Source of the DNA: Candidatus Omnitrophota bacterium
Lineage (GTDB): Bacteria; Omnitrophota; Gorgyraeia; JAFGGP01
Length of the DNA: 54,938 bases
NCBI GenBank assembly: GCA_016930485.1
Contig: JAFGGP010000017.1
Coordinates: 1-54,938 of the forward strand
Direction: 5' to 3'
Under the pieces are notes generated by a model, which was given only the letters and a program-made list of their open reading frames with translations, did not search any database and was not told where the DNA came from. Position 1 is the stretch's first letter; each line of letters opens with the position of its first letter. Positions 3,001 to 25,337 of the stretch are shown in pieces. Made by a program: the position numbers and the translations under genes.

Positions 3001-3770
3001 GGTAATCGTGATTGATGTCGACCCGTCCAGGCTGGTTCCGGTCGTCGTCGTAGTCGCCTCAATAACCTTTGCCTGGCCGTTGACAATGGCGTAGACATTG
3101 TCGGTGTGGGAATGCTGTTCATTGCCGAAGAGATCCGTGGTGATTGAATCGCTGTAGCCGTCGGCCCCGGTCAGATGGCCGACGCTGTCATACTCATAGT
3201 GCGTCACCGAGGTAGTGTCGGTCACTGATCCGTCGAGGCTGAACATAGTACTGGTCCCGCTTGCCTGGGACATGTGTGCCTCTGCCACCTGCGCCTCGTT
3301 GATAATAATCACGTAGTCGAAATCCGTCTCACCCTCGTGTTTATTTCCGAAGATATCGGAACCCGTGTATTCGTCGCCACCGTCCGAGCCTATCAGAAGA
3401 AGCGTATTGGGATCATAATCAAACGTCTGCCAGCCTATCTTGTGCTGTGTAGAGCCATCCATATTCTGAATGTCAGTCACGCTGTTAACCCGTACCACCT
3501 TTGCCTGACCATACATAATCTCGTATATATCGGTGGTAACCGTGGTGTAAGTATTACCAAATATGTCGAGGCCGTTCGTAACGCTTCCGCCCTCGGCCCC
3601 GATCAAGATGCCGTTTTCATCATAGAAGTACTCCACCCAGCTCACCGTATGGCTGGTAGAGCCGTCGGCATTCCAGCGGTAGGTATCCGTATCATACCGG
3701 TTAGTGTTACCGTCGGAATTGAGGTACTTGGTATAGTAGGTCTCGTTTGTGTTGCCAAAGTCGTCTTCGC
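1..3770 (-). repeat. Array of about 20 degenerate D/N-[IVLM]-F-G beta-repeats in the giant protein
   Basis: Recurrent units such as DIFGNTYTTVTTDIYEIMYGQAKVV, DIFGNKHEGETDFDYVIIINEAQV and DLFGNEQHSHTDNVYAIVNGQAKV. A few more copies at about 9790-10260. Confidence 0.85.
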
Positions 3771-6700: not shown

Positions 6701-9700
6701 GGGTCCTCTGTCGGGTCATCAGGGGGTACATCGTCCCATGGGTCATCATCCTGCGGGATATTAACCGTCGTGGGATTAAACTGATGTACTGAAAACCCTG
6801 AGAAGGTGTGCGATGCAGAGCCGCTATAGGCGGAGCCGCCCCCGCCCAAACCATACTTTCTGTATACCTCGACCGAGTACCATTTCTCCCCTGGTTCATC
6901 CTCATCGTCGTCAGCGCCGCCAGCTTCGTCATCGTCGTCATCGGCATCATCGTCGTCATCGTCGTCATCCGGAGGGTTATTGCCACCCGGGTCATCCGGG
7001 TCAAATTCCGGGGCACCGGCCGGTGCTACCAGGTCAATAAGTTTGGCAGTCTGAGTAAAGTCGTCCAGCAGTAGTGCGGCTGCCAAGGCCTCATTCGGGG
7101 TAAGGCCGCTGTCGCTGTTCTCTGCGATATAGGCCGCCTCCATCGCCCGCACCCACGCCTTTACCGCAGCGGCCGATATGGCCGATGAGGTGTCTCCTGA
7201 CGGGTTCATATTGACATGAAAGGCAAAATCGGCCACCTGGACCTTGGTAATTTTTTCACCATACTGGTATTGTGTCAGCTCTTCCTCCCAGGAAAGATCT
7301 TCCCAGAACTGTTGAATCGTCACCGATACACCGGTTGTCTTGTTTGTGCCTGTCACCTCTGTGAAGTCTCCGACTGAGCCATTTACGTTGCCATTGTAAT
7401 ACCCGACAAGTTGATACCAAGTGTCAGGTATATTGGGGTCAAGACCCTGGGGATCGATGTAATCGATATAGGAAGCTTGATTGCTGGGGTCAACAATAAT
7501 ATCAATGGTGGTCCCGGGATTGGCCGGGTCGTCAACCGTTACGGCATACGTGTAATTCATCGGGTTAACATTAGAGCCTTTCCCGGCATTGCTCCCATCC
7601 AAGGCGACATAGTCCCATTCACCAGCCTGGTGCGTAACCAGTCTGGTAACCGGGTTGCCATATTGATCACGGACAACCTCTCTGTTAACGTCGTACTGCC
7701 CCCTCTCCACCTTGACCGTAATGACCGCGTCCTTGGTCGGGTCAGGCTCGCCTGCCTCGTTCTCCCCGTAGGTAATAGTCATGGTAAAAGTGTACGTTAC
7801 CGTGTGTACCTGATTCCTATAAATGCGGAAGTCGCTGGACGGGTAAGCTGTGTGGCCTGTATCAGGGTTTTCATAGCGGGTGCCGGTGCCCCAGCTCTGT
7901 CCGGCAAGGTCGACCTCCACGGTTTTTGTCCACTCATAGCCGTTTTCAACCGGCTTGACTGCCAAGGCCGTACCCATCTGACCCTCATCAAACTCACCGA
8001 GTGGCGGATTCCACTCCAGGAGATTGATAGGAGGTGAGGCCACGGTCGGGTTGGTGCCATTTGCAAGCTTTGCAGAGGTATCCAGCACGCCGAAGGCCAG
8101 AAGCTGTATAAAACCGAACCCGTACGGGTCGGTGGTCCAGGCAGAATATGTCGTATTGGCTTTGTTAACGGTGTTGTCCATAAAAGTCGAACTAGGTCCC
8201 CAATGGTCTCCAAGATAATTGGGCGCAGACAGAGTCGAGACATTGCCCCACTGCTTGCCAAGGGAGTTTGAGGCAATCCACAGCTGACGGTCACTGGGGT
8301 CAATGTCATCTCCTACTACCCTCTTCACCGAGGCATACATCATGCCCAGGCCGCACGCCTTGACACACATGGCATCGATATTATATGCCAGGCTCCCGCC
8401 GCCCGTAGTACCGGTATAGGCACCAGTATTGCCGTCGCCTACTGCTGAATAGGCCTCGATCCTTGCCACAAACGCTGATTGGCCCTGCTGATTGCTCCAG
8501 GAATAATAATCCGCATACTCAATACCCGGTATGGCCTCACCACCTCCCCCCACATTATCCCTGGCGACTATCACGCACCTGCCCTGACCGCCAGTTTTTG
8601 ACATATACACATCAAGCCCATCAGCAAGTGTGAACGAGCTGCCGTCAGGGCCTGACTCATCAACCCAGACGTAGCGGCCTGTCGGGGTGGTGTCGCCGTT
8701 CCGGTAAAACTCTATAGTGTAATCCCCAAACTGGAAGTACCCGTACCGCGCGCCGTTTCCATAGTCATACCAGGTTCTGCCATTAGTCGATTGACCTATC
8801 CTATTGCCGTCGCCATCATACAAATCCCAGGCGATAATGCGGCCATTTGCCGGATTGATGCGTGGGTCCCAATGGCTGTTAGGGGGTGCCCAGGGGGGGA
8901 GGGGTGGCTCAGGTGGCGGCGTGTAATCATCATCATCATCATCGGCACCGCGTATCTGTTTCATGACCTCATCGGGGATTTCCCTGGCACCAGCGGGTTT
9001 TTCGCTGCTCAACACCACACCCTGCCACTTCTCCAGAAATTCCTCTTTTGTATAGATAATCACCTCGCCGTTTGTCTCAAGGACCTTGACCAGGTTGTCG
9101 GTCGCGCCAAGGACAATGACATAGTGGGTCGGGCTGAAATGCGCGATGACCGGCTGAGTAAGATTGACCAGTTCGTCATAGGTAAGTTCGAGGCCGTACA
9201 GTTCCACGCCATAGAGTTTTCCTACCTCCCTGAGCGATGACGCCGAAAGAATCAGCCTGCCGCTGGTAAGCGGGGTAATGACCCCGGTAAAGATATCGGT
9301 AAGGATGGTCTTGATCGCGATATCCGCGTAGTCGGTACCGGCAACGCCCAGTTGCATCAAGAGCCGCTGGATCGCCACAAAGGCGCTTGACCCGAAGTGC
9401 GCGTCCTGGTGCTCGAGCCAGTCGATGATAGCCCGCACACCCAGGGCAGTAAGCGAGACCGCGATATCCATAGTCAGGCCGAGTGCGGCAAGCATGGCCC
9501 GCTGCTCCTCAGGAGAAAGGGTGATAAAGCGCTCGAGCACCTCCCTCACCCGGTCAATAATGGTCTCGCGTGCCTCCTGCATCCGGGCATATTCATCGGA
9601 TGCCAGAAGTTCGCGGCGGACATCTTCGAGTGTCTTATCGCCCGAGAGGATTGCCTCCCGATACTGATCAAATTCCTGGGTCGTCGGGTCCCTCCCGAGG

Positions 9701-12239: not shown

Positions 12240-12280
12240 AAAAAAACCGGACTGCTTTACTCTTCTTTCGGCAGCCCGGC
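12240..12280 (-). terminator. Intrinsic terminator (riboswitch expression platform)
   Basis: Minus strand GCCGGGCUGC...GCAGUCCGGU followed by a U-run; the 5' arm is the 3' end of the aptamer. Confidence 0.85.
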
Positions 12281-12349
12281 TTTCCTAACTCATTTGGATC
12301 CGCGGCTTTGCGCCCCGCACTTCCGTGTGGTTTGCCTTTGTCGGGAAGT
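12262..12349 (-). ncRNA. c-di-GMP-I (GEMM) riboswitch
   Basis: Minus strand CGACAAAGGCAAACCACAC-GGAA-GUGCGGGGCGCAAAGCCGCGGAUCCAAA...GGAAAGCCGGGCUGCCG matches the GEMM consensus (GGCAAAC, GNRA loop, GCAAAG, CUGCCG). Confidence 0.92.
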
Positions 12350-12372: not shown

Positions 12373-12401
12373 AGTATGCCATATTGTATATATAGTGTCA
12401 A
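12373..12401 (-). promoter_or_regulatory. sigma70 promoter of the riboswitch/giant gene
   Basis: TTGACA-17 bp-CATACT with TG extended -10, just upstream of the aptamer. Confidence 0.75.
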
Positions 12402-12730: not shown

Positions 12731-12751
12731 TGATACGGTTATGATACGGTT
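12731..12751. promoter_or_regulatory. Tandem TGATACGGTT direct repeat (candidate operator)
   Basis: TGATACGGTT-A-TGATACGGTT spans the RND stop codon; the same pair occurs at 24760 and 25316. Confidence 0.55.
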
Positions 12752-15700
12752 TCTGCAGCCTGTTTCAGTCTTTTCCGAAAGAATAAGAACGCCACTATGT
12801 TACTGAGCAACCTTCCAAACTGTTCAAAGAGAAGATACATCCCCGGGATAATGAAAAGCGTGAGGCATGTTGAGCTAATAAGTCCCCCTATGACGGTGAT
12901 CGCCAACGGGGACCACAGAGATGATGACTCACTCTTGCCAATAGCCATAGGCACAAGTCCTAAAACCGTGGTTAGGGTAGTCATCATAATGGGCCTAAGC
13001 CTGTCCTGAGATCCTACTACTATTGCCCGATGTAGCCGATACCCCTTTCTCCTGAGGAGATTGATATGGTCAACCATGACGATGGCGTTATTTACTACAA
13101 TCCCGGCAAGCATAATAGAGCCGATCATAACCCCCTGGGTAATGGAGGTGTGGGTTTTTATAAGGGCTATGGTAACCCCGATGGCGGCAAGGGGTACAGT
13201 GAGCATAATGAGAAATGGTTGAACATACGACTCAAAAAGCGAGGCAAGCACCAAATACACCAAAAGGACGGTAATCACAAATACAAAGATAAGTTGCTTG
13301 TAGCGCTCGAGGTTCTTATAGTAATCACCGCCTATCCGGTAATAATAATCCTTCGGAAAAGGCAGGTCCTTCAAGACCTCCCGGATCTGTTCAACCGCAC
13401 CATGCAGAGAAATGCCTGCGCAGTTGGCGCTGATGTGGATAATCCTGTTCTTATTCTGGCGGATAATTTCGCCTGGTACCAGCGAGGGGACAAACTGGGC
13501 AATCTCCTCAAGATACACCTGCTCCCCTTCCGGGGTACCGAGGGTTAATTTTCGTATTTCATCGATCGTATCCCGATATTCCCCCTGGAGGCGCACCACC
13601 GTTTCAACCTCGGTACCCTCGGTATGATACCGGGTGGCCCTGAGTCCGCGCATCTGGGCATGTAAGGTTTCGGCGACCTCCTTGACGGTCACCCCATAGA
13701 GCGCCGCCCTATCCTTTACTATCTCCACGCCCCATTCAGGCCTACCCTGTATCCTGGACATACGGACATCCTGCAGGCCCTGGATAGTAGACAGCCGTTC
13801 GGAGATCGACCCTGCCAGTTCCTTGAGTATTTTGTAGTCGAACCCGTAGAGGTCCACAATAACCTCTTCCATGCCGGATTCCTTAATTTCTGAAAAATAG
13901 ATAAATCCCCCTTTGTACTTCTTCTCAACGGCGGCCGCCTTTGAGCGGATGTAGTCGATGAGTTCCTGGGTTTCGCGCTGCCTCTGGGCCCGGGGAATCA
14001 AATTAACGTATACCTTGGAAGAACCAGCTTCAACATGGGAAGAGAAATTTTTAATCTCGGGGATCTCTTCAAGAAACTGCTCGATCTCCTTGGCCATATG
14101 ATCCGAGATATCCAGCTTTGCCCCTGGATCAAGATCGACAAATATGGTGAATCTTCCCTCTCCGGAACTGGTGGTAAACTGCTTATCCACCTTATTGGTC
14201 AGAAAGTAGACGGACAGCAAAAAGGCGAGAACAATGTCAAATATGATCAGAAATTTATACCGCAATACAAAAATCAGGACTTTTTTGTATATCCAGGTTA
14301 TGTCAAGGAGGCGGAGCAGAAAGGTTAAAAAACGTCCCCGCACCTTTTTTATCTTTTCTTTTAGCGGCGGCAATATGCGCGAGGCTAGCATAGGAACAAG
14401 GCTCATTGCCACAAAGAGAGAGGAAACCAGCGAGTAGGTCACGGTCATGGCGAGTCCCATCCACAGAATTTGAATCTCTTTATTGACAAAGATAAAGGGC
14501 AAAAAGACGACTATCGTCGTTACGGTTGAGGCGACGACCGCAAGCATAACCTCTTCGGTTCCCTCGACAACCGCCTTTCTTGTCGAAAGGCCGTCTGACC
14601 TGAGCTTGAAGATATTTTCCAGCACGACGATCGAGTTATCCACAAGCATACCAATTCCCAGTGCCAACCCGCTCAGTGTCATAATATTAAGTGTGATCTC
14701 CTGTTTAAAGAGTGTCCGGGACAGATACATAAAAAAGAAGGTTGCCATAACCGAAATGGGGATGGTAGTGGCAATAATAAACGTTGAGGGGATCTCTCGC
14801 AGAAAAAGAAAGAGGATAATGACTGCCAGTAAAGCCCCCTGCAGCAGTGATTCCTGCACCGTGTGAATGGCGTCCTTAATGGAGGTTGACTGATTGAATA
14901 TTGTTTTGATTTTAACCCCTTCAGGAAGTTCTATATGCTTCAATTCATCCAGGATGCCCTCACAGACTCCTATTGTATTGGCGGTGCTTTCTTTGTAGAT
15001 ATAGAGCGACACAACCGGCTGGATATCCACACGGGCATAGCTCTCCGGCTCAAGAAACGAATCATCCACCCGTGCCAGCTCCTTCAATCGAATCACCGAA
15101 CCCTGCGGGGTAGTGGCAACGCCGATATTCCGTACATCCTCGAGTGACTCGAATACCCCGATGGTCCTGATGAGCAGTTTGTTTTTCGTCTGTTTGACCT
15201 CACCGGCTACAAGATTCATATTGCTTCTGCCCAGAACGCTGATCACGCGTTCGATCGGGATGTTGTAGGCCTGGAGCTTTTTTTGGTCAACCTCTACCAG
15301 AATCTTACGCTGCTGACCACCGAATACATCAACGTTTGCCACCCCTTCAACACGTAACAACCGTTCTTTTACATCGGCATCAACGATCTGGCGCAATACC
15401 TCCGGTGAGTGATAGGTACCAGTAGTAGCCAGGAGGATAACGGGATAGTCCGACTGTTTATACTGGGCGATAACCGGTTTTTCTATCTCTTTGGGCAGTT
15501 TTTCCTTTACCGTGGAAAACTTCTCTCTGACCTCCAGTGCGGCAAAATCCATATTGACCCCTGGCTCGAATTCCAGCACCACCCGGGACTCGCCTTTCTT
15601 GGAACTTGAGCTCAGATTATCGAGATGGGTAACCGTACTGACCGCCTCTTCGACCGGTCGGGTCACCAGGGCCTCTACCTCTTCCGGAGGCATGCCGCCC

Positions 15701-15855
15701 CTGACGTGAATGATAATACTTATTGTGCCGAGACTCACATTGGGCATGAGCTCCACCGGAAGGCGCAAGAGGGAATTTGTGCCCAAAATGATGACCGCGA
15801 GAAAAACCATCGTAATGGTAACCGGCTTTTTTACCGAAAAATCGGGAAGGGCCAT
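12739..15855 (-). CDS. RND transporter, AcrB/SwrC-like (1038 aa)
   Basis: PEEVEALVTRPVEEA, GMLVDNSIVVLENI, GIVVNNAIV, RLRPIMMTT motifs; 12-TM layout. Confidence 0.95.
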   Translation of the reverse strand: MALPDFSVKKPVTITMVFLAVIILGTNSLLRLPVELMPNVSLGTISIIIHVRGGMPPEEVEALVTRPVEEAVSTVTHLDNLSSSSKKGESRVVLEFEPGVNMDFAALEVREKFSTVKEKLPKEIEKPVIAQYKQSDYPVILLATTGTYHSPEVLRQIVDADVKERLLRVEGVANVDVFGGQQRKILVEVDQKKLQAYNIPIERVISVLGRSNMNLVAGEVKQTKNKLLIRTIGVFESLEDVRNIGVATTPQGSVIRLKELARVDDSFLEPESYARVDIQPVVSLYIYKESTANTIGVCEGILDELKHIELPEGVKIKTIFNQSTSIKDAIHTVQESLLQGALLAVIILFLFLREIPSTFIIATTIPISVMATFFFMYLSRTLFKQEITLNIMTLSGLALGIGMLVDNSIVVLENIFKLRSDGLSTRKAVVEGTEEVMLAVVASTVTTIVVFLPFIFVNKEIQILWMGLAMTVTYSLVSSLFVAMSLVPMLASRILPPLKEKIKKVRGRFLTFLLRLLDITWIYKKVLIFVLRYKFLIIFDIVLAFLLSVYFLTNKVDKQFTTSSGEGRFTIFVDLDPGAKLDISDHMAKEIEQFLEEIPEIKNFSSHVEAGSSKVYVNLIPRAQRQRETQELIDYIRSKAAAVEKKYKGGFIYFSEIKESGMEEVIVDLYGFDYKILKELAGSISERLSTIQGLQDVRMSRIQGRPEWGVEIVKDRAALYGVTVKEVAETLHAQMRGLRATRYHTEGTEVETVVRLQGEYRDTIDEIRKLTLGTPEGEQVYLEEIAQFVPSLVPGEIIRQNKNRIIHISANCAGISLHGAVEQIREVLKDLPFPKDYYYRIGGDYYKNLERYKQLIFVFVITVLLVYLVLASLFESYVQPFLIMLTVPLAAIGVTIALIKTHTSITQGVMIGSIMLAGIVVNNAIVMVDHINLLRRKGYRLHRAIVVGSQDRLRPIMMTTLTTVLGLVPMAIGKSESSSLWSPLAITVIGGLISSTCLTLFIIPGMYLLFEQFGRLLSNIVAFLFFRKRLKQAAETVS

Positions 15856-15878
15856 GTGTTCATTTCCCTATCGATGCA

Positions 15879-16421
15879 TCACTTCTCTATCGATACATCT
15901 TGCTGTATTGTATCTGGTGTATTAACTCTTCTATCAAACGCCCCGTCCAAATCCGTATCTTGCTCCAATGCCACCATCTGTCCCTGCTGATAAAAACACC
16001 TGAGATCAACATTGCCGTCATAGTTTTTGTCAAGCTCTTGGCGGACAAGGTTATTGTCCTTAAAATAGGCCCATACATCAGGGGTGCCGTCGCCGTTTTT
16101 ATCTGCTGACTGATATTTGGTTGTCCCGTCCGGATTATAGGAAACCCATATCTCTGGTGTGCCGTTGTTGTCACTATCAACCTCTACTTCATATAGCAGT
16201 CCTTTGCGAAATGTGCCCCAGACATCCTTTTTGCCGTCTTGGTTTCTATCAACCTCGAAGTGCTGAGGCATGCCGTCTTCACTATAAAAAATCTTCATAT
16301 CGGGTGTGCCGTCTTTATCCCGGTCTAGTTCCTGCGCAATCTCCGCGGCATAACCAAAAAAAGGCACGCAAAGGATAAACACGCCACAAAAAACGAAGAT
16401 AAACAATAGGTTATGTTTCAC
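15879..16421 (-). CDS. Secreted protein with six DxDxDG (putative Ca2+-binding) repeats
   Basis: Signal peptide; DRDKDGTPD, DRNQDGKKD, DSDNNGTPE, DKNGDGTPD, DKNYDGNVD, DTDLDGAFD. Confidence 0.85.
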   Translation of the reverse strand: MKHNLLFIFVFCGVFILCVPFFGYAAEIAQELDRDKDGTPDMKIFYSEDGMPQHFEVDRNQDGKKDVWGTFRKGLLYEVEVDSDNNGTPEIWVSYNPDGTTKYQSADKNGDGTPDVWAYFKDNNLVRQELDKNYDGNVDLRCFYQQGQMVALEQDTDLDGAFDRRVNTPDTIQQDVSIEK

Positions 16422-16424
16422 GAA

Positions 16425-17306
16425 TCATAACTCCTTTTTTTCAAATATGTTATGCTTTTTCCCTTTGGTCGGCGCAAGTTCCTCAGGCACTCTTTGATCC
16501 AGCCCTTCTATGCTCTTCTCATCCTCCTCTTTTTTATCCTGTCGAGGCTCTTGCTGTAACTCGCCCGCTTCTTCTCCGGCACTCTCTATTTCATACGCTT
16601 CTTTGAGTGATGTCTCGGTCTCCTTGAGCGCCTCTTCAAGTTTCTCCGGTTCTTGTTTGTCTACCTCTTTGACGTTCTCTTCTTCCGCATCTTGTTCAGT
16701 CCCCTCTTGCAACTCACCGGCCTCCTCGGCAGTCTCTATGTCATAGGCCTCTTTGAGTGATGTCTCGGTCTCCTTGAGCGCCTCTTCAGGAATAACACTG
16801 ATAAAATATATCTCAGAAATACCGGAGCCTGTGATTCCCGTAACAAGGGTTTCGCTATACACAACATTAACCGGATCACCTATGTTAAGTTTTGTTATAT
16901 CGGACGGTGCCCCTTGTATCAGAATCTGGCTCTTCTCAAGATTAAAAATCGCTGTTATCTCCTCCTTGAAAAGACCGCTGCGGACCGTAATCGCATATGT
17001 CCCGTCATCCTTATGCCGGATAGCAGTAACCTTCCCAATCATCTGAGACATAAGCACCGGGGCAGGAAGAATGGTCTGTGTCGGCATCATAGGTACCGAT
17101 CCCATCGTTGTGGGGATATTCGGGGTCGTACGAGGCTGCATATACTGCTGGGGTAACGGTGGAGATGAAGGCTGCCGTATCTCGGCCGGCGTCTGAGGTA
17201 CAACCACGGTTGACGGGGTCCGCTGTCTGTTGTCCTGCGCAATGCTTTCTCCAACAATGCCCGTTAATAGGTATACACATACACAAAAAATGAACATTTT
17301 TTTCAT
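16425..17306 (-). CDS. Secreted hypothetical protein: Pro-rich linker, OB-fold-like core, acidic repeat tail
   Basis: Signal peptide ending SIA-Q; GGGAG 6 nt before ATG 17306; in operon. Confidence 0.8.
   Translation of the reverse strand: MKKMFIFCVCVYLLTGIVGESIAQDNRQRTPSTVVVPQTPAEIRQPSSPPLPQQYMQPRTTPNIPTTMGSVPMMPTQTILPAPVLMSQMIGKVTAIRHKDDGTYAITVRSGLFKEEITAIFNLEKSQILIQGAPSDITKLNIGDPVNVVYSETLVTGITGSGISEIYFISVIPEEALKETETSLKEAYDIETAEEAGELQEGTEQDAEEENVKEVDKQEPEKLEEALKETETSLKEAYEIESAGEEAGELQQEPRQDKKEEDEKSIEGLDQRVPEELAPTKGKKHNIFEKKEL
16600..16788. repeat. Internal duplication with 150-bp period (39 bp identical)
   Basis: tctttgagtgatgtctcggtctccttgagcgcctcttca at 16600 and 16750; EEALKETETSLKEAY twice. 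Confidence 0.9.
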
Positions 17307-17382
17307 TTTCAACTCCCATGATTGGTTCGCGGGCTACTCGGATTCTACGAGTTCGCGAGTTATTTTTTTCGTCCGTTCTTCT

Positions 17383-17412
17383 AATCGCTATCCGCTAGTC
17401 GCTAAACGCTAT
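17383..17412. repeat. Heptamer-periodic intergenic repeat (annCGCT x4)
   Basis: aatcgct atccgct agtcgct aaacgct. Confidence 0.7.
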
Positions 17413-17415
17413 AGC

Positions 17416-20400
17416 TTATTCTGCTAATTCATACCACCTGCCGGGACCAAGGGGCCCCTTCCCGTGCACCAGATTACGATCTACAAGGTCTTTAAGGTCC
17501 CGTGCAGCAGTAGGTACCGATACCTTAAATATCACTGAATACTGCTTTCTGGTAAGGCGTTTATACACCTTCAGGAATTCCAATGCCTTCTCCTGCCTCT
17601 CATTAAGCAGCCTCTCTTCAGACCCTGGAATAATAAAATCGGGGGGCGGTACCGGAAGCTGGCCGATATCAGGCTGCGGCGGCTCCAGTGCCTCAGTCTT
17701 CTCTTCCGCAGGCTGTTCCCCCACCGCTCCTTCTTCTCTCTGAATGCCCTCTTCCTGCTCCTTCTCAGATGACTGCGGCCCTTCTATTGGAGGCAGACGA
17801 TCTTCTTCCTCGGTGCGTTCCAGGTGCGGCTTTTCTTCAGGCTTCTCTTCTTCCGGTGACTCTGCCTGTCCTTCTTCAGGCTTTTTGTCTTCAAGCCTCT
17901 CTTCCTCCGGTGATTTTCTCCGTTCTTCTTCGGGTCCTTTTTCTTCCACCGGTTCTATCTCTCTTTCTTCCTGGAAGGACTCAAACGGTATCTCCTGCGA
18001 TGTCTCTTTCTCTTCTATCTCGCGAGAAACCTCGGTTGGCTCTGGCGAAAAAGCCCCCTTCTCTTCTTTCTCTGTGTCAGGTTCTTCTTGCACCTTTTCT
18101 TCTTTTTCTTCCCGCGGTCTCTTCTTCTTGCGTGCTATCGGATAGTCGAGTCGATCAAGCCAGGAGAGATCGGCAGGGCCCTTTCTTGTCGGTTCTGACG
18201 GGATATCCTCCTTCTGCTGAACCATTTCGTCTTGATGCGTCTCTTCCTGCCTCTCTATCGTGTCTTCTTTTTTTGTAACCCGCTGAAACCAGGGTCTTTC
18301 TCGCGGCAGCGACTCTTCTATATCATCATCTGAAGGGGAAAGAATATCCCGCATGCCCTTTAAAAAAAGCCCTATCATCTCGGAAAAGGACGAAAGCTGG
18401 CCGACGGCTGACAGCATCCCTCCCGGTGTCCCGGCCGGCTGAAATGCGAGGTCGCCTGCCCTAACGCCCATTCTCTCCCCCGCGCCTCCCCTGACATACT
18501 CAGCCGCGCACTCCCGGTCTTCTTTCTTGGAGGCAATGCCGAAGAAAATAACCGGAATGACTACGAGCGTCAAAAAGGTGGACACGATAAGACCGCCCAT
18601 AACCGTCAATGCCATTGGGGCCATAAGTCCGCCGCTTACTGCCATAGGAATCCATCCAAGCACTGTCGTCAGGGTAGTCATCAAAATAGGGCGTAACCGG
18701 CTCTGGGCTGCCTCCCGCACGGCATCAAAAAGCGTCTGTCCCTCAAGTCGCAGGAGATTAATGGTATCTATCAATACGATACCGTTATTGACCACGATTC
18801 CACCCAGAATAATAATTCCCAAAAGCACCACGGCGCTCATCGGGGTACCGGTCAATAGCAAAGTCCAGGCTATGCCTATCAGGGAAAGGGGTACGGTAAA
18901 CATAATAACAAAAGGTTGCCATAGACTTTCAAACAGTGACGCCATAATCATATAGACCAGCACGATCGCAAAGATCAGGGCAAAACGCAGGCTGCCGAAG
19001 GACTCCTCCATCTGTTGTCTCTCGCCCGTGAGGGAAACAACATAGTCTCCCTGCCGTTCTCCTGCGAGCCATTCCTCCTGAAAGGAGGCAAGGAATACAT
19101 CAACATCCTCCAGAATCTGGCTTAACGGCCGCTGCGTCACGTTGGCACTGATGAAGACAACGCGTTGCTGGTCAATTCTCTTGATCTCGCTGGGGCCTAC
19201 ATCCTTGGTAATGTACGCCACCTCCTTGAGTGGCACCTCAAGATCCAAGGGCGAATGCACCAATAACCCCCGCAACTGCACCAGATCCTTTCTGTCTCTT
19301 TCCTGAAGCCTGACCCGGATATCCGTTTCTTTTCCGCCCTCTTTAAACTTGCTTGCTATCGCCCCTTTCACCGCGATGTGCGTCGTGAGGGCAATCTCAT
19401 TGACCGCGAGCTGATAAAATGAGGCCTTATCCTTGATAACGTTAACCTTGATTTCCGGATGCGGAAGCGATAGGGAGGTCTTGACACCGTAGATCCCCTG
19501 AATCCTCAAAAGGCCCCGCTGGACCTCCTCTGCCCCGCGTTTCAGCTTATCAAGCTCTTTCCCCTTCAATTCAACAACGATCGGGCTGCCCCCCTGAAAG
19601 GCGGATGCGAATAAACTCTCCTGAGCAACATACTCTACCTCCGCCCCCTCAAGGGCCATCTTGTCGGTTTTGGCCTTGACCATCTGTATTAACTGATTGG
19701 TCGATATTGCCCTTTTTCCTTTCAGATTAACGATAATCTGGGCCTGATGCACACCGAGCGTTTCGATAACATCACCCGAGTCACGGCTCTTGGAAGAACC
19801 GATATTAACGGTGACGGACTCTACTGGATCGTACTCGCTTAAAAGCCGCTCGATTGCCTGAGAGACACGGTCTGTCACCTCAAGGCGGGTGCCGGTCGGC
19901 ATATTTACTTTTATAACAAACTGCCCTTCATCGACCTTCGGCATAAATTCCTTATTAATAACGGTGAACAACATCATGCTGACCACAAAGAGGATAGACA
20001 CTGACGACAGTATGAGAAAGCGCTTATTAAGGAGGCTGCCAATAACATCGGCATACATTTTTTCTATCTTGATGAAGGGGTGCGGTTTCTCTTCCTTTTT
20101 TTTCTGTGTCGCCTCTACTGCAATGGGAGCTCCGTCCTTCTGGCCGAGTGTCCGGGCCGCATCGCCTGCCACAAGACGCGGTATCAGGGAAAGGGCAACG
20201 AACACAGAGGCAGACAGGGAGAAAATAACGGTCCAGGCAAGCTCTTTAAATAACTGGCCCGCTACCCCGATAGAATACAGTATCATCGGTGCAAACACAC
20301 ATATTGTAGTAAGCGTGGACGCCCACACCGCGTTATTCATTTCGTTCGCTCCGTCGCGGGCGGCATCGACAATCCCTTTCCCTTCTTCCTGCAACCGGAA

Positions 20401-21702
20401 GATATTCTCCATGACCACAATGCTGTTATCAACCAGCATTCCTATGCCAAGCGCAAGCCCCATCAGGCTCATCATATTTATCGTGATACCGATAAAGTAC
20501 ATCAGGCTGAACGTAGCCAGAATCGAGATCGGTATCGAAGTGGCAACAATAAGCGAATTTTTTATGTCGCGGAGAAAAAAAAGCAGGACCAAAAATACAA
20601 GGACGCCTCCGATCAGAGCGGAATCCCTTACCTCATTGATTGATTTTTTGATGAACGCTGACTGGTCGTAGACAATGGCTATGTCCACATCCTGCGGAAG
20701 ATCTATCCTAAGCTGCTCGAGCCGTTTTTGAACAGCATTCGAAACGCTGATGGTATTGGCGCCGGCCTGCTTTAACACCGAAAGTGAGATATTTTCAATC
20801 CCGTTATAGCGTGATACACTCGTTTTTTCCCGGTATGTTTCTTTTACATCGCCGAGGTCGCCAAGGGCAATAAATCGTGAGGTGGTCTCAGACTCCTCTT
20901 TTTTGCCCCTAAGCATGCTTTTCCTTTCGTCCTCCGCCTCCCCGGTCTTCCGGCTCAGTTCTTCTACCCGAACCACCATTTTTTTCAGATCGCCCACTGT
21001 TTTAAACTCGCCCATCGTCCTGATGAGATATTCATAAAAACTCTCCTCAATGGTCCCGGCAGGATAATTTAAGTTTGACTTGCCGACTGCTTCATTAATC
21101 CGCGAAATCGGCACGTTATGTGCCTGAAGCCTGGCCTGATCGAGTTCGATCAGGATCTCGCGGTCGACGCCGCCGCTCAGACTTGCCGAGGCAACGCCCT
21201 CCACCTTCTCCAATTCATCCTTAATGCGCTTACGGACAAACTCTTTCAAATCCGCCGGGTGTCTCTCACCGGTAATACTTAACACCATGATCGGCAGCTC
21301 AAAGGGATTAAACTTCATCACGATGGGGTCGCTCGCCTCATTCGGCAGGCGCTCTTTTACCAGATCGATCTTTTCACGGACCGCAAGCGCGGCAAAATCC
21401 ATATTGGTGCCCCAGCCAAACTCGGCAACCACCAATGAGGTCCCCTCGCGTGACGTTGAACTTACCCGCTTCACCTTGCTGACGGTGCCGACACCTTCCT
21501 CGATAACCTTGGTAATGAGGGTTTCCACTTCTTCTGGGGCCGCGTTTTCGTAATTGGTGACGATGGAAAGTTGGGGATAGTTGAGGGCAGGAAATAATTC
21601 TTGAGGTAATTTACCGAGGGAAATAATACCCAGCAGCATTATCCCTATAAAAACCATGGTGATGGTAACAGGCCGCTGTACCGCTAGACTTGGCAAACTC
21701 AT
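17416..21702 (-). CDS. RND transporter (AcrB/SwrC-like) fused to an acidic tail of about 300 aa and a C-terminal winged helix-turn-helix
   Basis: RND motifs (GMLVDNSIVV, RLRPILMTT) over about 1055 aa; E/K/P-rich tail; terminal LNERQEKALEFLKVYKRLTRKQYSVIFKVSVPTAARDLKDLVDRNLVHGKGPLGPGRWYEL. Confidence 0.93.
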   Translation of the reverse strand: MSLPSLAVQRPVTITMVFIGIMLLGIISLGKLPQELFPALNYPQLSIVTNYENAAPEEVETLITKVIEEGVGTVSKVKRVSSTSREGTSLVVAEFGWGTNMDFAALAVREKIDLVKERLPNEASDPIVMKFNPFELPIMVLSITGERHPADLKEFVRKRIKDELEKVEGVASASLSGGVDREILIELDQARLQAHNVPISRINEAVGKSNLNYPAGTIEESFYEYLIRTMGEFKTVGDLKKMVVRVEELSRKTGEAEDERKSMLRGKKEESETTSRFIALGDLGDVKETYREKTSVSRYNGIENISLSVLKQAGANTISVSNAVQKRLEQLRIDLPQDVDIAIVYDQSAFIKKSINEVRDSALIGGVLVFLVLLFFLRDIKNSLIVATSIPISILATFSLMYFIGITINMMSLMGLALGIGMLVDNSIVVMENIFRLQEEGKGIVDAARDGANEMNNAVWASTLTTICVFAPMILYSIGVAGQLFKELAWTVIFSLSASVFVALSLIPRLVAGDAARTLGQKDGAPIAVEATQKKKEEKPHPFIKIEKMYADVIGSLLNKRFLILSSVSILFVVSMMLFTVINKEFMPKVDEGQFVIKVNMPTGTRLEVTDRVSQAIERLLSEYDPVESVTVNIGSSKSRDSGDVIETLGVHQAQIIVNLKGKRAISTNQLIQMVKAKTDKMALEGAEVEYVAQESLFASAFQGGSPIVVELKGKELDKLKRGAEEVQRGLLRIQGIYGVKTSLSLPHPEIKVNVIKDKASFYQLAVNEIALTTHIAVKGAIASKFKEGGKETDIRVRLQERDRKDLVQLRGLLVHSPLDLEVPLKEVAYITKDVGPSEIKRIDQQRVVFISANVTQRPLSQILEDVDVFLASFQEEWLAGERQGDYVVSLTGERQQMEESFGSLRFALIFAIVLVYMIMASLFESLWQPFVIMFTVPLSLIGIAWTLLLTGTPMSAVVLLGIIILGGIVVNNGIVLIDTINLLRLEGQTLFDAVREAAQSRLRPILMTTLTTVLGWIPMAVSGGLMAPMALTVMGGLIVSTFLTLVVIPVIFFGIASKKEDRECAAEYVRGGAGERMGVRAGDLAFQPAGTPGGMLSAVGQLSSFSEMIGLFLKGMRDILSPSDDDIEESLPRERPWFQRVTKKEDTIERQEETHQDEMVQQKEDIPSEPTRKGPADLSWLDRLDYPIARKKKRPREEKEEKVQEEPDTEKEEKGAFSPEPTEVSREIEEKETSQEIPFESFQEEREIEPVEEKGPEEERRKSPEEERLEDKKPEEGQAESPEEEKPEEKPHLERTEEEDRLPPIEGPQSSEKEQEEGIQREEGAVGEQPAEEKTEALEPPQPDIGQLPVPPPDFIIPGSEERLLNERQEKALEFLKVYKRLTRKQYSVIFKVSVPTAARDLKDLVDRNLVHGKGPLGPGRWYELAE

Positions 21703-21774
21703 ACGTTAAATACTTCACCCCCTTATACCACAACACTATGTGTCTCTTTACCAAGGTACACTCACGTTTATAGG

Positions 21775-22989
21775 TTAAATATCACTTTCTTTGATCTCGG
21801 TAATCTCAACCTCGCGTCCGTCTTTGAGTGTCTCGTGGGTCTCCACAACAACAAGCTCGCCTTCCTCTAACCCTGACTCAATCTGCGCGTAATCGGTGGT
21901 TACGTAACCGATCTGTATCTGCCGCTGTTTTGCCACCTTCTCGTCCTCCACAACAAAAACGCTGTATCCTTCCTCGGTCTTTTCGAGTGCCATGCTCGGC
22001 ATAACCAGTGCGTCTTCCATCTCGAAGATACGCACCATACACCTGGCAAACATGCCGGGAAGCAGTTGATTATCGGGATTTTCTATTTTTACCTTGACCG
22101 TCAGCGTCCTGGTTTTTCCTTCCAGGGCAGGGGTAATATTATCAACAAGGCCGGTAAATTTCTTTCCTGGATAGGCATCAACCTCAACCTCAACCTCCTG
22201 ATCAAAGGCGATCTTCTCGATATCCTTCTCGATCACCCCCAGCACGGCGTAGACCTCAAATATCTCGGTCAACTCAACGGTATCATTCTGAGGTGTGACA
22301 AACTCCCCGGGCTCAATTTTTTTAGAGGTGATAACACCAGCGGATGGGGCATGCAGTTTTGTCTTGGTAAGGTCGGATTCGGCGCTCTCCAGTTCTACCT
22401 GGGTAGCAGCAAGCTGTTTTTCGGCAACCTGGGCCTCTATCTCTACCTCCTTCACCTTGGCCTCGACGATCGCCCCCATTTCGTACAGTTGTCTGTGTAT
22501 CGCCAGCTTCTGCAGGGCCCCCTGATGAGATACCTCTGCGGATGCAACCTTGGAAGCAGCGTATTTGACTTTCAGCCGAGCATCCTTATCATCCAGCTCT
22601 CCGACAAGATCCCCTTTACTTACCAAATCGCCCTCTCGCACATAGAGCTGCGTCAAGACGCCGGAGATCTCGAACTTCAGCGGAATGGTAGATATGCCTT
22701 CGATAGTGCCCATAACAGGCAGATTATCCTCGAAATAGGTCCTTGCCACCCGGAATACCTTAACCGGTGCCGGCTTCTCTTCCTGCTGGGCCTCTTCTTC
22801 CTCTACCATGGTCTCTTGTTTTGTCCCGGTCCGTAACAGCGCGCTGATCTTGGCGCCGCCCGGCAGCTGTTCCAAAGGAATCTTATCTAAAATAGCCTCT
22901 CTCCCTACATAGATGATTACCATCGCGATAAAAAGTAAAAGTGAAATACTGAATATTCTCTTTCCAAATCTTGACCAACGGATCTTCAT
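21775..22989 (-). CDS. RND periplasmic adaptor (membrane fusion protein)
   Basis: N-terminal TM; lipoyl-like halves (VREGDLVSKGD, LHAPSAGVI); LLPGMFAR; start reassigned to MKIRWS. Confidence 0.93.
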   Translation of the reverse strand: MKIRWSRFGKRIFSISLLLFIAMVIIYVGREAILDKIPLEQLPGGAKISALLRTGTKQETMVEEEEAQQEEKPAPVKVFRVARTYFEDNLPVMGTIEGISTIPLKFEISGVLTQLYVREGDLVSKGDLVGELDDKDARLKVKYAASKVASAEVSHQGALQKLAIHRQLYEMGAIVEAKVKEVEIEAQVAEKQLAATQVELESAESDLTKTKLHAPSAGVITSKKIEPGEFVTPQNDTVELTEIFEVYAVLGVIEKDIEKIAFDQEVEVEVDAYPGKKFTGLVDNITPALEGKTRTLTVKVKIENPDNQLLPGMFARCMVRIFEMEDALVMPSMALEKTEEGYSVFVVEDEKVAKQRQIQIGYVTTDYAQIESGLEEGELVVVETHETLKDGREVEITEIKESDI

Positions 22990-23105
22990 GGTGTCTCTCC
23001 AGAAAAAGTCTCGTTGTAGATAACAATTTCCCGCCCTCGAAACCGCACCGATGGACTCGCGCAGGGGGGGCAATGGAGTCGTTGAGCCCTGTCAACGCCC
23101 CTTAT

Positions 23106-25226
23106 CTATTTTTCGCCTCTGTCAAAGTACCCGGTAATACCTACCACCTTGTTCAGTTCCGAAATCGCCGTATGGTGATCTGCCAACGCCTGATAATAAC
23201 TTGCGTTATTGTCCGCAAGCTCCAGCTCTGCCTTGAGGAGTTCGGTAATGGCGACTTCGTTTAGCTCCGTCATTGCCTGGTTTACCTTGACCTGTTCTTT
23301 GCTTAGCTCCAGCTTATTTTTTTCGTCCTTTAACGTCAGGAGCGATTTCTTGTATTTAAAGTAACTGTCCTTTACCTCGAAGTTAATGGTGAGTTCGGTC
23401 TTGTTGAGCTGCTCGAGCGCCTTATCATATTCAATAACAGCCGCTTTTTTATCGCTGTCGATCTTCATTGCCTCCGGGTCATACAGAGACATCTCGAGCG
23501 TATTCGTCTGGAATACGGTGCTGTCGGTCTGCCCTGCCTGAGGCACCCTGTCCTGGGCAAGCATCGAGTCTTTAAATGTGTGCTTTGACCATGGATACTT
23601 TACCTCAAGCCCCACAAACCACTCTTCGGTAAACTCCTTGGGTTCGGTTTCATAGGCCTCTGCACCCCAGCCGGCAAGACCGCTGAGACTGACCTGAGGC
23701 CTGCCGCGGGACTTGGCTATCCGTATCCCGTATGCGTTAAACTTAAGTAACAGTTCATTAATAGCAAGATCCGGCCTGTTGTTCCGGGCAAGCTCAAGGC
23801 ACTCATCTACCGTTTTACCGATCTCTATCTCATCCTCTACGGGCGTTGGATCGATAGCGATAAGTGCTTCATCACCCTTAATATTCAAATTATTCTGCAG
23901 GGTAAGCTGGGCCAGGGTAAGCTCGTTCTTGTTCTGTTCGCGCTTAAACTCAAGCTGATTCACCATTGACTGGGTTGTAAGCAATTCGAGCCTCCTGCTC
24001 AGGCCTGCCTCATACCGCTTCTCCACAATCTCCGAGATTCGGGCAGATTCATCAACCAACTCCTCATAAAGGTCCTCTTTTTTCACGCTGCCCGCCAGTG
24101 TATAGAAGGCCTTCTCCACCTCAAAGGTAAGGTCTTGTTTAATCTTTTCATACTTGGCCGCCGCCACTTCTACATTGACAACAGACTGCCGGTAGGAGTT
24201 CCTGATTTCGCCGCCCCTGTATAGAGGCTGTTGAAATTCGAACATATAACGCGTACCAAGAGAATCGACCATCCCCCCGCTCACCTCGCTTACCGATTCC
24301 TGCCACTTTAGGGTAGCCGTGGGGTACTTTGCGCGCTTTGCCTGATCTACCTTTAGCTGGGCCAATTCAACCTCTTTAAGGGCGATGCGGCATGGAGCAT
24401 GGTTTTCAAGACCTATGGTAATACACTCTTCGAGGGTAAGCGTCCGGCCGGCAAGATCCTCGGTTGTCTGAGGAATCTGGGCCCTCTTCACTGCGGATGG
24501 CCTGTTCGCATGAGAAGGCATGTATGGAGCCTTGGGAGGCTCAGGCGGTCTGGTGTGTTGTCTATAGGCTTCCGGGGGGCGTTTTGGGCTGACCATTCCC
24601 TGGGGTGCCTGAGGTAAACGATATGACGGGAGCTCACTCGCCATAGATTTCCTGGGGTAGGCCTCTGGGGTTTGTTTTTGCTGGGGAAGGGGACCGCTTT
24701 GACAGGTGTTTCCTGATGATGTACTTCTATAACTATCTGAAATTGAACAGGTTAAATTTTGATACGGTTTATGATACGGTTCATTCTTTGCTAGTTTCTT
24801 GGTTAATTGCGAAGATGCGGTAACATCGACTACTATCTGGTAAGTTGAGGAATTGACTGTGTACTGGGGATTGCCGTCAAAGATTACTGTTAACTGGTCT
24901 ATCTTGCTGCCGGCAGACGGAATGCCATTGGCGTAGAACGAAGGAATAACCTCTTTGACTCCTGCGATGTTAACCGGGATAGCACGTCTGTCAAGGTCAG
25001 TATAGATATTATCCCCGATAAGATCTATTACCAGGCGTTGAGGGTTTTCAAGTTTGAAATCAATAAACTCTAACGGGTGGCTCGATGGAATGATTAATTG
25101 AACCCCACTGTCTACCCTCTTGACGTGAACTCCGTATATCCTGACCACCCCTTCTCCATAAGCAGGATAAAAATAGGTAGTTACAAGAAAAAAACAGGTT
25201 GTTAAAATGCTATAAAGTCTTCTCAT
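23106..25226 (-). CDS. TolC-family outer membrane protein with N-terminal AMIN domain and Pro-rich linker
   Basis: Signal peptide; FKLENPQRLVIDL (AMIN signature); from LTLEECITIGLENH onward, two OEP-like helical repeats (QQPLYRGG, RRLELL, RPDL). Confidence 0.88.
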   Translation of the reverse strand: MRRLYSILTTCFFLVTTYFYPAYGEGVVRIYGVHVKRVDSGVQLIIPSSHPLEFIDFKLENPQRLVIDLIGDNIYTDLDRRAIPVNIAGVKEVIPSFYANGIPSAGSKIDQLTVIFDGNPQYTVNSSTYQIVVDVTASSQLTKKLAKNEPYHKPYQNLTCSISDSYRSTSSGNTCQSGPLPQQKQTPEAYPRKSMASELPSYRLPQAPQGMVSPKRPPEAYRQHTRPPEPPKAPYMPSHANRPSAVKRAQIPQTTEDLAGRTLTLEECITIGLENHAPCRIALKEVELAQLKVDQAKRAKYPTATLKWQESVSEVSGGMVDSLGTRYMFEFQQPLYRGGEIRNSYRQSVVNVEVAAAKYEKIKQDLTFEVEKAFYTLAGSVKKEDLYEELVDESARISEIVEKRYEAGLSRRLELLTTQSMVNQLEFKREQNKNELTLAQLTLQNNLNIKGDEALIAIDPTPVEDEIEIGKTVDECLELARNNRPDLAINELLLKFNAYGIRIAKSRGRPQVSLSGLAGWGAEAYETEPKEFTEEWFVGLEVKYPWSKHTFKDSMLAQDRVPQAGQTDSTVFQTNTLEMSLYDPEAMKIDSDKKAAVIEYDKALEQLNKTELTINFEVKDSYFKYKKSLLTLKDEKNKLELSKEQVKVNQAMTELNEVAITELLKAELELADNNASYYQALADHHTAISELNKVVGITGYFDRGEK
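24760..24781. promoter_or_regulatory. Tandem TGATACGGTT direct repeat inside the tolC-like gene
   Basis: TGATACGGTT-TA-TGATACGGTT, located in the inter-domain linker. Confidence 0.5.
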
Positions 25227-25268
25227 AATATTAAATTTGCTTAAACCTGTTCGAAATTGACAAAAAGA

Positions 25269-25297
25269 AGTGTATCACAAATATAGATTGACGTCAA
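25269..25297 (-). promoter_or_regulatory. sigma70 promoter of the export operon
   Basis: TTGACG-17 bp-TACACT with TG extension; the -35 lies in the palindrome TTGACGTCAA (25288-25297). Confidence 0.7.
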
Positions 25298-25315
25298 GAA
25301 ATATATGCAAAAAAA

Positions 25316-25337
25316 TGATACGGTTTCTGATACGCTT
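25316..25337. promoter_or_regulatory. Tandem TGATACG(G/C)TT direct repeat upstream of the export-operon -35
   Basis: TGATACGGTT-TC-TGATACGCTT, 19-40 bp upstream of the -35. Confidence 0.6.

Follow-up and report, generated by a model that had tools for sequence, protein, structure and literature searches.

The 54,938-nucleotide stretch of DNA analysed here (the window; positions 1 to 54,938 of contig JAFGGP010000017.1, assembly GCA_016930485.1 of a Candidatus Omnitrophota bacterium) carries an export operon coding for a TolC-like outer-membrane factor, a membrane-fusion protein (MFP) and two RND permeases, as well as a ten-nucleotide word, TGATACGGTT, which we call the box. The box is most likely the recognition site of a winged helix-turn-helix (wHTH) domain borne by the pump itself, at the C-terminal end of its first RND permease. 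We infer this binding from sequence comparisons and hold it to be probable, because the box travels with the domain that is fused to the pump.

Exact searches place the box on the plus strand of the window at 12731, 12742, 24760, 24772 and 25316, followed by a copy with one mismatch at 25328 (TGATACGCTT), and on the minus strand at 2716, 4756, 5410 and 5467. The plus-strand copies form three tandem pairs with periods of 11, 12 and 12 bp, all at the coordinates given in a preliminary description of this DNA:

12731..12751, plus strand: tandem pair 1, two exact boxes, period 11
24760..24781, plus strand: tandem pair 2, two exact boxes, period 12, inside the open reading frame (ORF) of the AMIN-TolC outer-membrane factor (23106-25226)
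25316..25337, plus strand: tandem pair 3, one exact and one single-mismatch box, period 12

Pair 1 overlaps the stop codon (12739-12741; ...E T V S *) of the second RND permease, RND2 (ORF 12739-15855), and lies 656 bp upstream of the start of the giant gene (12075); the site at 12731 is as much the upstream region of the giant gene as the end of the operon. Pair 2 encodes EPYHKPYQ in the low-complexity linker of TolC. Pair 3 is non-coding, 90 bp upstream of the TolC ATG and at about -54 to -75 of the predicted operon promoter. The translations agree with the frames originally reported for the first two pairs (ETVS*, EPYHKPYQ) and with the non-coding position of the third. When one mismatch is allowed, the window contains 21 matches, against 3.06 ± 1.63 in 100 dinucleotide shuffles (maximum 8; 0/100 reach 21), and this clustering is far from chance.

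The four minus-strand copies are single boxes on the sense strand of the giant gene:

1..12075, minus strand: giant gene of >4025 aa, which continues beyond the window (ORF list)
2716..2725, minus strand: single box, in-frame D-T-V (exact match)
4756..4765, minus strand: single box, in-frame D-T-V (exact match)
5410..5419, minus strand: single box, in-frame D-T-V (exact match)
5467..5476, minus strand: single box, in-frame D-T-V (exact match)

It had been noted that all of these encode D-T-V, which is correct, and suggested that they may reflect codon usage, which is not supported. The giant gene contains five DTV tripeptides, four of which use GAT-ACG-GTT, each with a preceding T (the fifth is GATACCGTT), where the codon usage of the gene itself predicts this combination in about 2.6% of DTV occurrences. 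Among 2000 synonymous-codon shuffles of the gene, the mean number of copies is 0.16 and the maximum 2, and none reaches the observed 4. These four copies are also under DNA-level constraint. The same holds for the word in general, as originally proposed, since its copies differ in orientation and reading frame, lie both within and outside coding DNA, and are conserved across families of the class.

The source genome (G000; 1,917,213 bp in 57 contigs, 50.1% GC, from an assembly that is 89% complete) contains 19 exact copies of the word, nine of them in the window, and 12 of the 19 belong to six tandem pairs. In addition to the three pairs of the window, these are C42:20161, inside the gene of a 289-aa protein with a wHTH and a transmembrane (TM) segment and 487 bp before a second giant gene; C43:11237, in the spacer that separates yidC from gidA-parA-parB; and C57:2123, with a period of 20, between convergent genes. 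With 19 copies that are mostly clustered as pairs, the word is not evenly over-represented, and the genome-wide count called for in the preliminary description therefore portrays it as rare and clustered. In the 289-aa protein of C42 (L002 4803-5672, plus strand), an N-terminal winged helix (weak HTH_20 match) is combined with a single predicted TM helix and a long tail; its coding sequence carries the box pair read as TTVSSTVSS, and its gene lies directly upstream of the second giant gene (>1777 aa).

To follow the box beyond this genome, we used a survey set of 401 genomes of the class, in which every relative belongs to another family than that of the source genome. An exact tandem, defined as GATACGGTT-N(1-4)-GATACGGTT, is present in 40 of the 401 genomes, against 0/401 for the reversed word taken as a control, and is concentrated by family (e.g. 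17 of the 22 genomes of family f15). We collected 54 distinct tandem sites, with a period of 11 in 40 of them, 12 in 12 and 10 in two. The core is preceded by T at position -1 in 53 of the 54 sites and by A at position -2 in 40, from which the 11-bp unit can be written ATGATACGGTT; no conservation is seen in the flanks of the 54 sites beyond A-2 and T-1. Other arrangements were also met, with spacings of 15-30 bp or inverted copies. A GTTAYA hexamer occurs 7-8 bp upstream of the pair in about 20 of the 54 sites, mostly from f15; its reading as a promoter element was considered and set aside, the upstream columns over all 54 sites holding little information (0.03-0.4 bits, A-2/T-1 excepted).

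We then compared this distribution with that of the domain, defining a close wHTH homologue as a match to the last 80 residues of the pump protein at E <= 1e-12. Such homologues occur in 92 of the 401 genomes, and in nearly every case they terminate an open frame of 1100-1660 aa. The tandem is present in 37 of these 92 genomes versus three of the 309 others (Fisher odds ratio 69), and conversely 37 of the 40 tandem-positive genomes carry a close wHTH homologue. The association also appears by family, with the tandem in 11 of 22 wHTH-positive versus one of 49 wHTH-negative families. The exact 10-mer, counted singly, averages 6.6 copies per genome in the 92 wHTH-positive genomes (control 3.2) and 3.8 (control 3.45) in the first 40 genomes lacking any match to the domain, bearing in mind that class-wide counts of single boxes are noisy and that reversal of the word gives an imperfect control. 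Five wHTH-negative genomes with high counts have scattered copies, among which one close pair was seen, in a genome that is 85% complete.

The candidate binder is encoded at the 3' end of the first RND gene:

17416..21702, minus strand: RND permease with C-terminal linker and wHTH, 1428 aa (Pfam; single open frame, no stop)
17605..18540, minus strand: acidic low-complexity linker of about 310 residues, from the RND core to the wHTH (translation, Pfam)
17419..17658, minus strand: last 80 codons of the first RND gene, candidate binder; the wHTH is the last ~62 residues

The ACR_tran core spans residues 5-1054 of the 1428-aa protein (Pfam), which ends in ...LNERQEKALEFLKVYKRLTRKQYSVIFKVSVPTAARDLKDLVDRNLVHGKGPLGPGRWYELAE; the wHTH and an integral membrane domain are thus part of one polypeptide in a single open frame. 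In AcrB-type pumps, the C-terminus is cytoplasmic and the pump is trimeric. An AlphaFold2 model built from 23 homologues (predicted local distance difference test score 85.8) predicts three helices (18-30, 35-42, 46-58) and a beta-hairpin (strands 62-65 and 73-76), i.e. a winged helix, whose recognition helix is SVPTAARDLKDLV. Homologues from two genomes score above the 21-bit cutoff of HTH_DeoR (PF08220), with 28.2 bits (G363) and 26.5 bits (G014), and several database homologues carry a precomputed PF08220 assignment. Among solved structures, the closest relative is 8cil, the wHTH at the C-terminus of a Fic protein, with a profile E value of 7.9e-5 and a fold TM-score of 0.69-0.71; Foldseek searches of the PDB return wHTH regulators with TM-scores of 0.6-0.73, and the gamma domain of FtsK appears as a weak match in both profile and fold searches. 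Pfam finds only ACR_tran/MMPL with the HTH last, and none of the C-terminal effector/oligomerisation domain of full-length DeoR-family proteins; nor is there a Pfam match to the Trans_reg_C or receiver domains of the OmpR/PhoB type, even at E values up to 5. No copy of the wHTH other than the RND tail was found in the source genome. Homologues of the pump protein in a large protein collection are labelled Candidatus Omnitrophota by their sources.

The remaining components of the operon and its predicted promoter are the following:

25269..25297, minus strand: predicted sigma-70-type operon promoter (TTGACG, 17 nt spacer, TACACT, TG before the -10; consensus scan only)
23106..25226, minus strand: AMIN-TolC, outer-membrane factor (OEP/TolC-like; Pfam)
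21775..23073, minus strand: membrane-fusion protein (HlyD_D23; Pfam)
16425..17312, minus strand: ORF of 295 aa without Pfam match (ORF list, Pfam)
15879..16421, minus strand: ORF of 180 aa without Pfam match (ORF list, Pfam)
12739..15855, minus strand: RND2, second RND permease, 1038 aa, without wHTH (Pfam)

Apart from the RND wHTH, a Pfam scan identifies no DNA-binding domain in the operon. The order TolC-MFP-RND(wHTH)-RND2 is conserved in families f6, f15, f22, f23, f29, f31 and f44, and is often followed by a large gene. Boxes are found at the 5' end of this operon in f1, f15, f23, f29, f31, f44 and f52, and box clusters mark both its promoter and its 3' boundary in f15, f23, f29, f31, f44 and f52, so that the presence of the word at orthologous operons, on which the original proposal depended, is observed at promoter or 3' end in six families. 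In twelve 15-kb operon loci from f15, f23, f29, f31 and f44 we counted 78 boxes with at most one mismatch, against 13 for the control, and these cluster at the operon 5' end and the RND2 3' end in both orientations. Promoter-side sites with 0-2 mismatches occur in G014, G052, G250, G145 and G293, and f23 also has a variant box, GAGACGGTT. In two f31 loci (L084, L085), a box lies between the -35 and the -10 (TTGACA-NN-AACCGTATCA-N5-TAAAGT), with more copies on either side, and in a third (L086) the same -35 is again followed by a box. The f44 promoter lies between an inverted copy on its upstream side and two direct copies, 19 bp apart, on its downstream side.

The placement of pair 1, at the 3' end of RND2 and ahead of a large downstream gene, recurs in f23, f52, f44 and f65. 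By hand tally, 28 of the 53 exact 10-mers in 17 genomes of f23 and f65 fall within 10 kb of the wHTH codons, and about 10 of these 17 genomes have a box 3.2-3.5 kb past the wHTH, which corresponds to the RND2 end. In four genomes (G181, G264, G117, G320), the sole exact copy is at this operon.

Family f22 provides a hint that helix and box vary together. Its recognition helix reads LP[VI]AD[KR]EL in place of VPTAARDL; the tandem is absent from all 18 of its genomes and the exact box from all six operon loci. This pattern of a changed helix and a lost box may thus represent co-variation. Right after the -35 TTGAC[AT] of two f22 promoters (L071, L072), where f31 has AACCGTATCA, we observed the string t-AACCTAT. 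Being present in two of three promoters (L076 is without a clear copy), it could be a variant box suited to the diverged helix.

The preliminary description had tied the word to the export operon, and this view proved too narrow. When sites are counted as site-neighbour entries, a few of them duplicating one locus, 19 entries are at yidC, where they either form part of the N-terminal coding sequence (as xDTVxDTV) or fall between this gene and parA. Twelve are directly upstream of parA, always in the same orientation, and 11 lie 164-718 bp upstream of homologues of the N-terminal part of the window giant gene. Four are found where an RND gene ends (stop codon or 3' end), one is 59 bp upstream of a TolC homologue (G157), like pair 3, and four are beside a small membrane protein of 81-84 aa, two of these four (L030, L038) being adjacent to a tRNA gene as well. 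Since the word is found at yidC/parA and upstream of giant-gene homologues, the regulon would be wider than the export operon.

Some of these loci show additional features. In yidC of f29 and f40 (L005, L024, L058, L060, L015), the pair is read as xDTVxDTV near the N-terminus of YidC, with identical GAT-ACG-GTT codons across families and with four copies in G028. Three f15 loci have the pair only 3-7 bp ahead of the parA ATG; parA might be leaderless here, but the spacing from the best -10-like hexamer fits poorly. The 81-84-aa protein (L030, L031, L033, L038; f15, f68) is conserved, has two TM helices and is divergently oriented 55-63 bp from the box pair; the tRNA gene of L030 and L038 borders the pair with its 3' end, on the opposite side. 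In L042 and L054 (G203, G293), a MerR-like gene of 177-202 aa ends 11-37 bp before the box pair, with an MshEN-PilZ gene next. Finally, one contig (G321:C11; L043/L044) has two inverted copies, about 12 kb apart, of a stretch comprising an M50 peptidase, two box pairs 135 bp apart and a giant-gene homologue, which is either a real inverted duplication or an assembly artefact.

How a pump might read such boxes can be outlined as follows. The reader would be the DeoR/Fic-type wHTH, as the cytoplasmic C-terminal tail of the first RND subunit (17416-21702). Because this wHTH is without a dimerisation module of its own, each copy of the tail would read one box; the long acidic linker looks disordered. 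Head-to-tail boxes one helical turn apart would allow two tails of one pump oligomer to bind side by side on the same DNA face, with a gain in avidity, and the presence of two RND genes per operon makes a 2:1 heterotrimer with two tails per pump possible. Through boxes at the promoter and 3' boundary of its own operon, the pump level would feed back on pump synthesis. The f31 box in the -35/-10 spacer would point to repression, as this position is usually repressive. Boxes at the adjacent giant gene, both upstream and inside, and at yidC-parA may reflect co-control of these loci or their holding at the membrane. The wHTH would then most likely act in autoregulation, and possibly also in holding loci at the membrane. 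The link between word and RND wHTH put forward in the preliminary description thus receives support of an indirect kind, from co-occurrence, from placement at promoter or 3' end in six families, and from the loss of the box in f22 along with a changed helix.

Several observations weigh against recognition of the box by the pump-borne domain. Three tandem-positive genomes have no close homologue (no match in G260 and G399, a weak one only in G367), these genomes being 85-89% complete. Conversely, the exact tight tandem is missing in 55 of the 92 wHTH-positive genomes; in f31, f44 and f6 at least, boxes are present at other spacings (15-30 bp) or as singles. The co-occurrence figures overstate the case, because related genomes are not independent and the association is in part one of shared ancestry. 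In f22, the single 10-mer is still about two-fold over the control (106 versus 55, summed by hand). In f6 the recognition helix is conserved, yet two operon loci have no box; the boxes of this family are at yidC-parA (G152) and near a second TolC-like gene (G363). The wHTH of the window itself scores 15.6 bits on HTH_DeoR, below the cutoff of 21. Moreover, pair 3 is upstream of the -35 and not over the core promoter. Lastly, the boxes at yidC/parA and inside the giant gene fit simple autoregulation poorly.

This last point keeps alive a tentative extension, in which the wHTH serves as a docking device: the tails of the pump would grip the boxes and hold the operon, the giant gene and yidC at the inner membrane. 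Very long or membrane-bound products would in this way be made beside the export and insertion machinery, a sequence-specific form of transertion. We consider such docking doubtful overall, and retain it because the boxes in the coding sequences of the giant gene and yidC are hard to explain by promoter control alone.

Among explanations that dispense with binding by the pump, the one that survives best, although we judge it unlikely, is that the box is the operator of another DNA-binding protein co-inherited with the RND-wHTH operon, the RND wHTH binding elsewhere or nothing at all. The evidence for the wHTH is all correlative, the regulon includes yidC/parA and other loci unrelated to efflux, and the f6 operon combines a conserved helix with the absence of boxes. 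An alternative candidate is even at hand, the wHTH-plus-TM protein of 289 aa from C42, which has a box pair within its own gene. However, when this protein is used as the query, it is detected in two of five box-rich genomes, once weakly, whereas the RND wHTH is found in all five, as it is in 37 of the 40 genomes with the tandem. The box-bearing operon encodes no other DNA-binding domain recognisable by Pfam, and the fact that its own promoter is boxed in six families is the usual signature of an autoregulated factor.

That the box is a centromere-like or origin-region element, for instance a non-canonical parS for ParB or another segregation factor, is in our view very improbable. The 12 entries directly upstream of parA and the 19 at yidC, genes that are typically origin-proximal, would speak for it, and the source genome encodes a canonical ParB (L001 8151-9008; ParB_N, HTH_ParB, ParB_C), yet has no canonical parS at up to two mismatches; at three mismatches there are nine matches, against about seven expected by chance (hand estimate). 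Across the class, canonical parS (at most one mismatch) is present in 65 of the 401 genomes. Nevertheless, parS is a 16-bp palindrome with the consensus TGTTNCACGTGAAACA, and the box is a direct repeat of an unrelated word. In f15, where 19 of 22 genomes have parS and 17 of 22 the tandem, a canonical parS lies on the same contig 1.3-1.5 kb from the box pair (G014:C36:12525 versus 13880; also G196, G229 and G157), and we rejected identity with parS because the two elements co-occur side by side in this family. In addition, in the single-contig genome G250, parA is at 221 kb and the boxes are at 629, 708 and 901 kb.

Least credible of all is that the word is a by-product of codon bias (D-T-V), an RNA-level signal, a small mobile or repetitive extragenic palindrome (REP)-like repeat, or chance: single 10-mers do occur at 3-4 per genome without the domain, some such genomes having 10-13 copies, and several copies encode DTV, but none of the 2000 synonymous shuffles of the giant gene reaches the observed count, some pairs are non-coding and others fall in at least two different reading frames, both orientations relative to neighbouring genes are seen, flanks unconserved beyond A-2 and T-1 in 54 sites argue against a transposed unit, and the reversed control is found in 0/401 genomes.

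Concerning the genomic setting of the export operon, the outer-membrane factor (23106-25226) has an AMIN domain at residues 33-94, a P/Q-rich linker of about 110 residues and then OEP repeats. In 16 ORF-mapped operon loci of other families, RND2 directly follows the wHTH gene; in the window, two ORFs (180 and 295 aa) lie between them. A 663-bp AT-rich spacer separates RND2 from the giant gene, for which a promoter is predicted as well:

12373..12401, minus strand: predicted giant-gene promoter (TTGACA, 17 nt spacer, CATACT, TG before the -10; consensus scan only)

Pair 1 lies about 330-380 bp upstream of this predicted promoter. Just downstream of the promoter (12401-12373), the 5' leader of the giant gene contains a cyclic di-GMP (c-di-GMP)-I (GGC-type) riboswitch aptamer (12266-12345, minus strand; 62.8 bits versus a gathering score of 59), and because of this aptamer the giant gene seems to be also under c-di-GMP control. 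In other families, homologues of the N-terminal part of the giant gene follow the RND operon or carry upstream boxes. In f22, f23 and f31 (L077-L086, L071-L072), as in the window (positions 1-25226), a very large gene comes after TolC-MFP-RND(wHTH)-RND2 on the same strand, a recurrent gene order which suggests that the pump and the giant protein form a functional unit. A preprint on Omnitrophota giant genes describes type II secretion-like loci upstream of them and pilZ genes downstream (10.1101/2023.11.21.568195).

In a literature search for the word and its complement, the matches listed are all unrelated, mostly primer sequences. Omnitrophota are not mentioned together with RND or helix-turn-helix among the matches listed, and a search on membrane-tethered transcription with an RND transporter found no paper. 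In a term search of the main texts of two preprints on Omnitrophota giant genes, TolC, RND, efflux, helix-turn-helix and AcrB are absent from both, as are 'promoter' from the first (10.1101/2023.11.21.568195) and 'operator' from the second (10.64898/2026.06.07.730766). Membrane-tethered regulators and direct-repeat wHTH operators are known kinds, whereas the literature searched contains no description of an RND permease with its own DNA-binding domain, a conserved operator, and a regulon of a giant gene and yidC/parA.

If our proposal is correct, this would be a transporter that carries its own sequence-specific DNA-binding domain and controls a small conserved regulon, composed of the pump, a giant protein that is surface-bound or secreted, and the region of the YidC insertase and ParA. 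It would represent the first testable transcription-factor/operator pair for the uncultivated Omnitrophota, it would connect the giant genes of this group, which have been much discussed, with a specific export operon and a specific control element, and it would offer a clean natural case in which to ask whether genes can be positioned at the membrane by membrane-tethered DNA binding. A short, nearly invariant box and a domain of 65-80 residues are well suited to in vitro work.

Several known systems share part of these features. The boxes of OmpR/PhoB regulators (e.g. the Pho box) repeat head to tail about every 11 bp, lie at the -35 or immediately upstream of it, and are read by winged-helix domains aligned along the same DNA face; here too the sites are direct repeats about one helical turn apart. 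However, the wHTH described here is not a Trans_reg_C domain, has no receiver and is the tail of a transporter, and nearly all ten positions of its putative box are fixed, in a set of sites gathered by exact search. ToxR, CadC and TcpP combine an N-terminal OmpR-type wHTH with one TM helix and a periplasmic sensor. They share with the pump a winged helix covalently tied to an inner-membrane protein, which means that target genes must come to the membrane; in contrast, the wHTH here is probably of DeoR/Fic type and is C-terminal on a 12-TM RND permease, after a linker of 80 to about 600 residues.

The gamma domain of FtsK, which reads FtsK-orienting polar sequences (KOPS), is likewise a small wHTH that ends a protein anchored in the membrane, with a long low-complexity linker and with oligomer copies reading short oriented words. 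KOPS occur in hundreds of copies with strand skew, whereas here there are about 19 boxes per genome in local clusters, and no translocase motor. In sequence and fold, the closest relatives of the wHTH are the Fic C-terminal wHTH (8cil) and the DeoR-type HTH (PF08220), although no Fic or DeoR sensor domain is attached to it; we know of no DNA target for the Fic-type domain.

MdtB2C-type RND pumps are heterotrimers with a 2:1 composition. They resemble the present operons in having two RND genes each, and a 2:1 pump would match the predominance of box pairs. Finally, PutA is a membrane-associated enzyme that represses its own operon through a ribbon-helix-helix domain and shuttles between DNA and membrane. 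Like the pump proposed here, it is a working membrane protein that has its own DNA-binding domain and is autoregulating, with the difference that in the Omnitrophota protein this domain is permanently tied to an integral pump.

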